A program made the translations under genes and the position numbers. The notes beneath the pieces were generated by a model. The model had not been told where the DNA came from and ran no database searches. It worked only from the letters and a program-made list of their open reading frames with translations. 8,486 bases of DNA. It comes from a virus (Duplodnaviria; Heunggongvirae; Uroviricota; Caudoviricetes). The first letter of the stretch is position 1; every line of letters begins with the position of its first letter. The DNA is taken from the IMG/VR virus record IMGVR_UViG_2634166492_000010; one strand, given 5' to 3'. This document shows positions 6,841 through 8,009 of this stretch, in pieces.

Positions 6841-7683
6841 GTTGGAGTCATTACCTGCACGCTTTTCTTTTAGCCATGTCGGTGTACCGTCGTTGGCAAA
6901 TAATTCACTGTTATCCCGTGAGGTATCGATGCCGAGGTGTTCACCTCCCAGGTTAAGAAACTCGATATGAGGAAGAAAGTTTTTAAATGTTGGGTTTGAA
7001 AATACCTGTCCATCAATACGGGTGGAGCGATCTTTTAGTATTCTGGCGGTGCGCCACACCTGACCGGTTTCTATGTTCATTTGCTTCTCCATCTGGATCA
7101 GGATGGAGGGTTCATAACCGGTTTCTGTTTCTGCTTTCATTTTTATACCGGTTTTTGCCAACTGGCGTTTGCCATCATCACCTTCGAAAAAGTCATACTC
7201 ATATCCTGCACGCCCGCACATAATAATGTGCGCCTGACTGTTAACAAATCGATCGGTAAAGCGTCGCCACTCCTGTTTGAGCCACGCCCAGTCTGAAAAT
7301 TCCAGTCCTCGTTTACGGTTTCGGCGTCTGGCATACTCGTCGCATAATCCGGTCCAGAAGTGACTGATGGAGTCGATGATCATTACGGAACCGCTGCTTT
7401 CCGCTTCATTAATGGCTTCAAGCAGATCAACAAACGAGCGGGTTTTTGCCGTAAATAATTCGATATTTTCCGCATCAAAGCGGGGTTTAACCCAGTCAGA
7501 GCCTGTTTCTGTGTCCAGAAACATTACCGGGCGGTTACCAGCTTCAATTCCCCGTTGCCGCATAAGCATTACCAGACCAATAGCCAGTTCGCTTGCTGTG
7601 TAGGTTTTGCCGTCGCCAGCAAACCCCATAATTCCTGCTTTTAGATAGGCCTGTGTGTTTATTGCTCGTTGAAAAAGCGCCAT
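6775..7683 (-). CDS. Phage-associated P-loop NTPase (RecA-like; AAA_24/Sak4-like is the best guess); native 276 codons (6856..7683) fused to 26 IS1-derived codons, so 3'-truncated by IS1
   Basis: Walker A GFAGDGKT at residues 19-26, followed by FLDTETG; Walker B-like MIIDSISHF. The C-terminal 26 aa ([26 protein letters not shown]) are translated from the IS1 terminus, so the native 3' end is missing. ATG at 7683 is preceded by GGAGG lying inside the upstream gene's end (translational coupling). Family assignment is from motif pattern only. Confidence 0.6.
6833..6855. repeat. IS1 terminal inverted repeat, insB-proximal end
   Basis: atcagtaagttggagtcattacc, the reverse complement of the canonical IS1 end (ggtaatgactccaacttactgat). 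Confidence 0.85.
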
Positions 7684-7688
7684 AGATT

Positions 7689-8009
7689 TTAGTCCTCCAA
7701 ATCAATATCAACCTGGTGGTGGGCAATGGTTTCAGCCATGTACCGGATGTGTTCTGCCATGCGCTCCTGAAACTCAACATCATCATCAAATGCGTGGCTG
7801 ATTGCCTGTTTATTGGCACCGTGGCGTTGCAAATGGTCGATGCAGAGCGATTCAAACAGGTGCTGAGGCAGACCTTTTTCCAGGTCGTCCGCCAGTTCCG
7901 TTTCTTTTTCTTCACGAACGATCTGCTGGTAGTGGCGAGCCCATGCCATTTCTTCAATACGATCAAAAATCGGGTAAGCGCTCTGAGGTAGCCTGAGTTT
8001 AACGGACAC
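7689..8009 (-). pseudogene. Acidic hypothetical protein, apparently 5'-disrupted by the IS3-family element (native sequence 7689..7983); an alternative intact 86-aa product from ATG at 7949 cannot be excluded
   Basis: The frame is open from inside the IS left end (GTG at 8009; first 9 codons are IS-derived) to TAA at 7689-7691. Residues are acidic (...[32 protein letters not shown]...[32 protein letters not shown]). The stop is 5 nt from the ATPase start. No family recognised. Confidence 0.35.

Follow-up and report, generated by a model that had tools for sequence, protein, structure and literature searches.

What were the two genes that now lie between two insertion sequence (IS) elements in the Caudoviricetes record IMGVR_UViG_2634166492_000010, and which system did they serve? 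The stretch analysed, referred to here as the window, comprises 8,486 nucleotides (nt), and positions 6856-7983 read as a segment of non-IS DNA with IS1 on one side and IS600 on the other. It carries two co-oriented genes on the minus strand, gam upstream and an ATPase gene downstream. We consider this segment to be the remnant of the recombination (Rec) module of a lambda-like prophage, composed of Gam and a Sak4-like ATPase of RecA fold, the latter most likely an annealing recombinase, and assign a probability of about 0.8 to this explanation. The segment would then descend from a lambdoid prophage, now decayed, whose early-left operon included this homologous-recombination module. A reading made earlier from the sequence alone (the original prediction) had placed the pair either in such a module or in a locus for anti-phage defence or abortive infection.

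The boundaries of the segment can be read directly. The IS1 inverted repeat (GGTAATGACTCC... in the minus-strand reading) ends at 6855 and native DNA starts at 6856; the IS600 terminus (TGAGGTAGCC...) begins at 7984. At the gam-ATPase junction (7684-7698, minus strand) the gam stop codon TAA occupies 7691-7689, a spacer follows at 7688-7684 and the ATPase gene starts with an ATG at 7683-7681, 5 nt past the stop. A Shine-Dalgarno-like GGAGGA (7698-7693) lies within the last codons of gam, 10 nt from the ATPase start. The same spacing of 5 nt separates gam from the next gene in lambda (gam-bet) and in Escherichia coli R1. On the coordinates, the bracketing elements (recognised also by their transposase domains), the gene orientation, the stop-start spacing and the ribosome-binding site inside the upstream gene the original prediction was exact. 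The two-gene pattern is not due to chance, because both proteins give strong family matches and have hundreds of homologues. The extent of the damage was judged by aligning to the window an uninterrupted copy, that of E. coli FDAARGOS_943 (locus L001). Each gene is cut by a different IS element, as had been proposed, but the upstream gene is barely touched, the end of IS600 replacing only the 'AT' of its ATG.

The small acidic protein encoded upstream had been said to match nothing recognisable. By family it is lambda Gam, and hence a predicted inhibitor of RecBCD. The gene (7689-7983, minus strand) keeps 97 of 98 codons, codons 2-98 and the stop being intact in the alignment to the uninterrupted gene. 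The Pfam family PF06064 matches over the full length (184.3 bits against a cutoff of 25, E 4.7e-55, profile positions 2-97 of 98), a PHROG search returns phrog_259, 'gam-like host nuclease inhibitor' (E 5.4e-54), and 79 of 97 residues (81%) are shared with residues 41-137 of lambda Gam (E 5e-60). RefSeq, in which both genes of the segment are annotated, already labels the upstream gene Gam. At the DNA level, this part of the window matches 184 phage records as well as 3,080 E. coli genomes; where an annotation is listed, it reads Gam. NCBIfam offers no model for this Gam or for the ATPase.

Gam is established as a DNA mimic that plugs RecBCD (PMC12315714), and the predicted isoelectric point of 4.7 is consistent with that role. 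In the intact phage this acidic mimic would block the DNA-entry site of host RecBCD and so protect the linear ends of phage DNA. The likeness to the GamS form of lambda Gam (98 residues) extends from length, sequence identity and full-length profile match to the place of the gene after kil and the 5-nt spacing to its neighbour. In the early-left operon gam keeps its place after kil and before the recombinase gene, as kil-gam-ATPase in phage phiES15, kilR...gam-bet-exo in E. coli R1 and kil-gam-bet in lambda. The differences are that the downstream partner here is the ATPase gene, whereas in lambda it is bet, and that the ATG of the window copy has been destroyed by IS600. Having lost its start codon together with its upstream sequence, gam in the window is probably silent. 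An in-frame GTG at 8009 (minus strand) and nine codons from the IS600 end create a 106-codon IS600-Gam fusion in the list of open reading frames (8009-7689); its expression is doubtful because the sole Shine-Dalgarno-like sequence directly abuts the GTG.

The ATPase gene (6856-7683, minus strand) retains codons 1-276 of 365, the intact form being WP_001173292, encoded at L001:9301-10398 in FDAARGOS_943. In the window the reading frame runs on for 26 codons into IS1, to 6775. The RecA-like core is preserved, and most of a helical C-terminal domain and an acidic tail are lost. PF13479 (AAA_24), a family treated as synonymous with Sak4 by Steczkiewicz et al. (PMC8093625), matches at 53 bits, above the gathering score of 27. 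The protein also matches the Sak4-like phrog_124 (E 1e-08), more strongly than does the experimentally characterised Sak4 of HK620 (1.9e-05). The core fold is of RecA/Rad51 type with conserved Walker A and B motifs, and the top fold matches are recombinases and RAD51 paralogues, a solved Sak4 among them. By sequence, a single-sequence search of the PDB gave no matches, and a profile search gave RadA alone at a non-significant E of 1.6. The motifs picked out from the sequence, Walker A (GFAGDGKT), DTETG and IIDSISHF, are all present with their key residues invariant across 51 homologues, and the family proposed for the ATPase, AAA_24/Sak4-like, is borne out. With HK620 HkaL, Sak4 of the lactococcal phage phi31 and ORF016 of a Staphylococcus aureus phage (PDB code 8rc5) it shares the RecA core, the Walker motifs, PF13479 and the Sak4-like PHROG. 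The likeness to Sak4 extends to genomic place, in the Rec module of temperate phages beside an anti-RecBCD gene and, in some lineages, with the gene for single-stranded DNA-binding protein (SSB) directly 3' of it.

Where is the pair found intact? Uninterrupted copies are present in ten complete E. coli genomes, enteroinvasive strains (EIEC) included, and are known from EIEC/Shigella prophages and from the inducible Cronobacter phage phiES15. The E. coli gene order is recE'(pseudogene)-gam-ATPase-DUF1187-xis-int, adjoining yebY or gyrA. In phiES15, which is inducible by ultraviolet light, it is cI-like...kil-gam-ATPase-orf-methylase-xis-int, a textbook lambdoid early-left operon, and across the whole phiES15 genome no Rad52-type annealing protein is annotated. 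By analogy with lambda, gam and the ATPase gene would be co-transcribed from pL. These contexts, recE' or kil ahead of the pair and xis-int behind it, bear out the origin in a phage recombination module that had been suggested as one possibility.

Most is learned from a syntenic prophage of E. coli R1, also inserted at yebY, which carries lambda Red: recE-family-gam-bet-exo-ralR-DUF1187-xis-int. In pairwise BLAST the flank on the gam side, which extends two bases beyond the stop codon of gam, is 88% identical, and the flank that starts with DUF1187 is 97.5% identical. Between them lies a non-homologous slot filled either by the ATPase gene (1128 nt, L001:9298-10425) or by bet-exo-ralR (1662 nt, L111:5298-6959). 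The DNA homology between the window and lambda likewise ends just past the gam stop. Judged from these alignments, the ATPase gene and bet-exo-ralR are alternative cassettes, swapped at a gene boundary in the classical mosaic manner. The flanks (recE-family gene and gam on one side, DUF1187-xis-int-yebY on the other) and the operon logic are those of the Red prophage, whereas a single gene for a RecA-fold ATPase stands for the Rad52-fold annealase Bet, the exonuclease Exo and ralR. In this temperate-phage Rec module, then, the recombinase slot holds the ATPase gene instead of one for a Rad52-type annealase, and the swap between syntenic prophages argues that the product of the ATPase gene supplies the recombinase function. 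In the intact phage it would most likely act as an ATP-dependent single-strand-annealing recombinase, in the place held by Bet (and Exo) in lambda.

A recombinase role also fits the survey of Bobay et al., in which none of 275 lambdoid phages and prophages had a RecBCD inhibitor without a recombinase (PMC3784561). Zheng et al. (2025) describe 'anti-RecBCD + strand-annealing protein' as a common type of Rec module and include a Rad51/RecA-type class of annealase (PMC12315714). In kind, this is an everyday lambdoid Rec module, 'anti-RecBCD + RecA-fold annealase', and not a new defence or two-gene system. The original prediction had allowed that the intact ancestor might be an uncharacterised module with a novel partner; the intact homologues prove to be an ordinary annotated pair of phage recombination genes in which neither partner is novel. 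The one modest novelty is the longer Sak4-related subfamily, phrog_1366, to which the ATPase belongs and which is uncharacterised.

The subfamily is large. One search gave 1,945 close homologues of the ATPase, and at E < 1e-30 there are 494 clusters at 50% identity, mostly matching over about 340 residues, in Enterobacteriaceae, Pseudomonas, Burkholderiales and beyond. Where the flanking sequence suffices, members sit on prophage-like contigs upstream of an integrase gene. Neighbour statistics rest on tblastn and phmmer with known seeds and on the gene calls supplied with the contigs; calls based on open reading frames gave many spurious frames in high-GC loci and were excluded. In 48 of 53 enterobacterial loci gam ends 3-12 nt upstream of the ATPase gene, with Gam alleles that share only about 38% identity. 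Scans of 103 loci for Bet and Exo homologues, out to 4 kb from the ATPase gene, gave none. In 5 of 42 clusters (90% identity), Achromobacter-type prophages among them, the next gene after that for the ATPase encodes a canonical SSB, and a sixth cluster has an SSB-like protein whose tail is of DIPF type. An SSB gene directly after the recombinase gene is a known Sak4 arrangement, and HK620 Sak4 is stimulated by its SSB (PMC5928155). In the remaining five enterobacterial loci (L019-L021, L072 and L082, all viral contigs with ATPases of 83-88% identity) no Gam is detectable upstream; four of the five have kil.

Several observations weigh against an annealing recombinase of the Sak4 kind. The best PHROG of the ATPase is phrog_1366 (E 1e-79), which is labelled 'unknown function', and the subfamily is biochemically uncharacterised. 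Lopes et al. (2010) describe Sak4 as a core-only protein of fewer than 290 residues (PMC2896510), and the intact ATPase has 365. Direct BLASTP against HK620 Sak4 is not significant, kinship to that protein being visible solely by profiles and fold, and an NCBIfam model is lacking. In the enterobacterial lineage neither an SSB gene nor a gene for an exonuclease partner lies beside the ATPase gene. The length beyond the core-only limit, the extra domain and tail and the BLASTP result are why we class the protein, on its sequence features, as a Sak4-like member of AAA_24 and not as a canonical Sak4.

Might the ATPase belong to the phage module and yet not be an annealing recombinase? It could be another DNA motor or accessory protein of the RecA superfamily, for instance a translocase or helicase-like ATPase that forms hexamers, or a mediator resembling the Rad51 paralogues that loads or regulates host RecA on Gam-protected ends. 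The PHROG of unknown function and the departures from canonical Sak4 given above leave some room for such a function, which we nevertheless regard as unlikely. In a syntenic prophage, bet-exo fill the very slot of the ATPase gene; since phiES15 carries O/P replication genes itself, that phage would rely on host DnaB; the best fold matches are recombinases and RAD51 paralogues, with a solved Sak4 among them; and the adjacency to SSB in other lineages mirrors Sak4.

If the ATPase is an annealing recombinase, what might the additional C-terminal region contribute? The helical domain, of approximately 130 residues, is conserved across the subfamily and has no significant structural neighbour. In the extra C-terminal regions of larger members (450-1100 residues) no added Pfam domains were found. 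The last stretch of the intact E. coli ATPase forms an acidic, disordered tail, ...YDENIPV, and relatives end in FDEEIPL, EEDIPQ or DEDVPQ; of 150 distant representatives of clusters, about 13 have ends of D[IV]PF type (D[IV]PF, IPF or LPF). The tail resembles the C-terminal tip of E. coli SSB, DDDIPF, and may mimic it. A speculative extension is that phrog_1366 (about 365 residues) represents a distinct 'long Sak4' type, in which the C-terminal domain and tail let one gene replace both Bet and Exo, for example by mimicry of the SSB tip that recruits SSB-interacting host nucleases or helicases to Gam-protected ends; we hold this to be improbable as it stands.

Many defence systems pair a P-loop ATPase with a small protein, and defence genes in prophages frequently lie close to int, yet an origin of the pair in an anti-phage defence or abortive-infection module, as the original prediction had also entertained, is highly improbable and was rejected. 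No search result supports it, and neither Gam nor the ATPase has a PADLOC-DB match at E <= 0.01. Gam, as the small partner, counters the host by a solved mechanism, the ATPase gene is interchangeable with bet-exo, and every context seen is a temperate-phage early-left operon, with the pair always between kil and xis/int.

For the window itself the result is of small consequence, being one more case of IS-driven decay of prophage genes in a genome of Shigella/EIEC type. Wider value lies only in the intact relatives, a large family (approximately 494 clusters) of uncharacterised Sak4-related ATPases encoded at the usual place of bet-exo. These are candidate compact, single-gene tools for recombineering, and if the SSB-like tail is functional they could show how RecA-fold annealases engage host SSB partners.

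How did the module decay? On the gam side the element is the left part of an IS600 of the IS3 family (7984-8486, plus strand), with orfA at 8048-8350 and an HTH_Tnp_1 domain, which runs off the window. It is 99.8% identical to elements annotated 'IS3-like element IS600 family transposase'. With its insertion gam lost two bases, the first and second of its start codon, and the connection to its upstream sequence, which is recE' in intact relatives. On the ATPase side lies a complete IS1 of 768 bp (6088-6855, plus strand), with insA at 6143-6418, insB' at 6337-6840 and the Pfam InsA and IS1 transposase (DDE) domains. Its ends are GGTAATGCTGCC... at 6088 and ...GGAGTCATTACC at 6855, the right end truncating the ATPase gene. 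The 9-mers beside the element differ, TGAAAAATA (6079-6087) as opposed to TGCACGCTT (6856-6864), so there is no target-site duplication, and one side of IS1 adjoins the upstream region of sitA, the other the middle part of the ATPase gene. The lack of a duplication implies that this junction would have arisen by an IS1-mediated rearrangement or adjacent deletion and not by simple insertion. The IS1-associated deletion would have taken the last 89 codons of the ATPase gene and the downstream DUF1187-xis-int genes.

The two lesions occur separately in relatives. The IS600-gam junction recurs in Shigella flexneri SFBU1023 (L093), but there the ATPase gene is intact and an IS1 lies approximately 1.7 kb past its end; another contig (L054) shows the IS1 truncation of the window with gam intact and preceded by recE'. 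The latter is one of two contigs of IMG genome 2537561620, IS600|recE'-gam(intact)-ATPase(1-276)|IS1, the other (L069) being IS600|gam(no ATG)-ATPase(intact). Erosion of the module by IS elements is recurrent, since one genome carries two differently eroded copies. In the window, where gam has neither its ATG nor its upstream sequence and the ATPase lacks most of its C-terminal domain, the module is almost certainly non-functional, in line with the loss of function suspected at the outset.

The rest of the window belongs to the same decayed, sit-carrying lambdoid prophage remnant, in which tail-fibre genes of the prophage (310-1449 and 1528-2151) are directly followed by sitDCBA (2352-5801, minus strand), an iron/manganese transporter operon, and then by IS1. 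The sitDCBA operon is cargo at the end of this prophage. A remnant in E. coli VL7S7 has the order yebY|int-xis-DUF1187-ATPase-gam-recE'...dicB'-IS1-tail genes-sitDCBA|uspF, and comparison with it indicates that the gene order of the window has been rearranged. Upstream of sitA, short repeats of GGGGCAAAAA type differ in copy number between the window (6019-6030) and VL7S7 (L010:13919-13960), the window being approximately 30 bp shorter.
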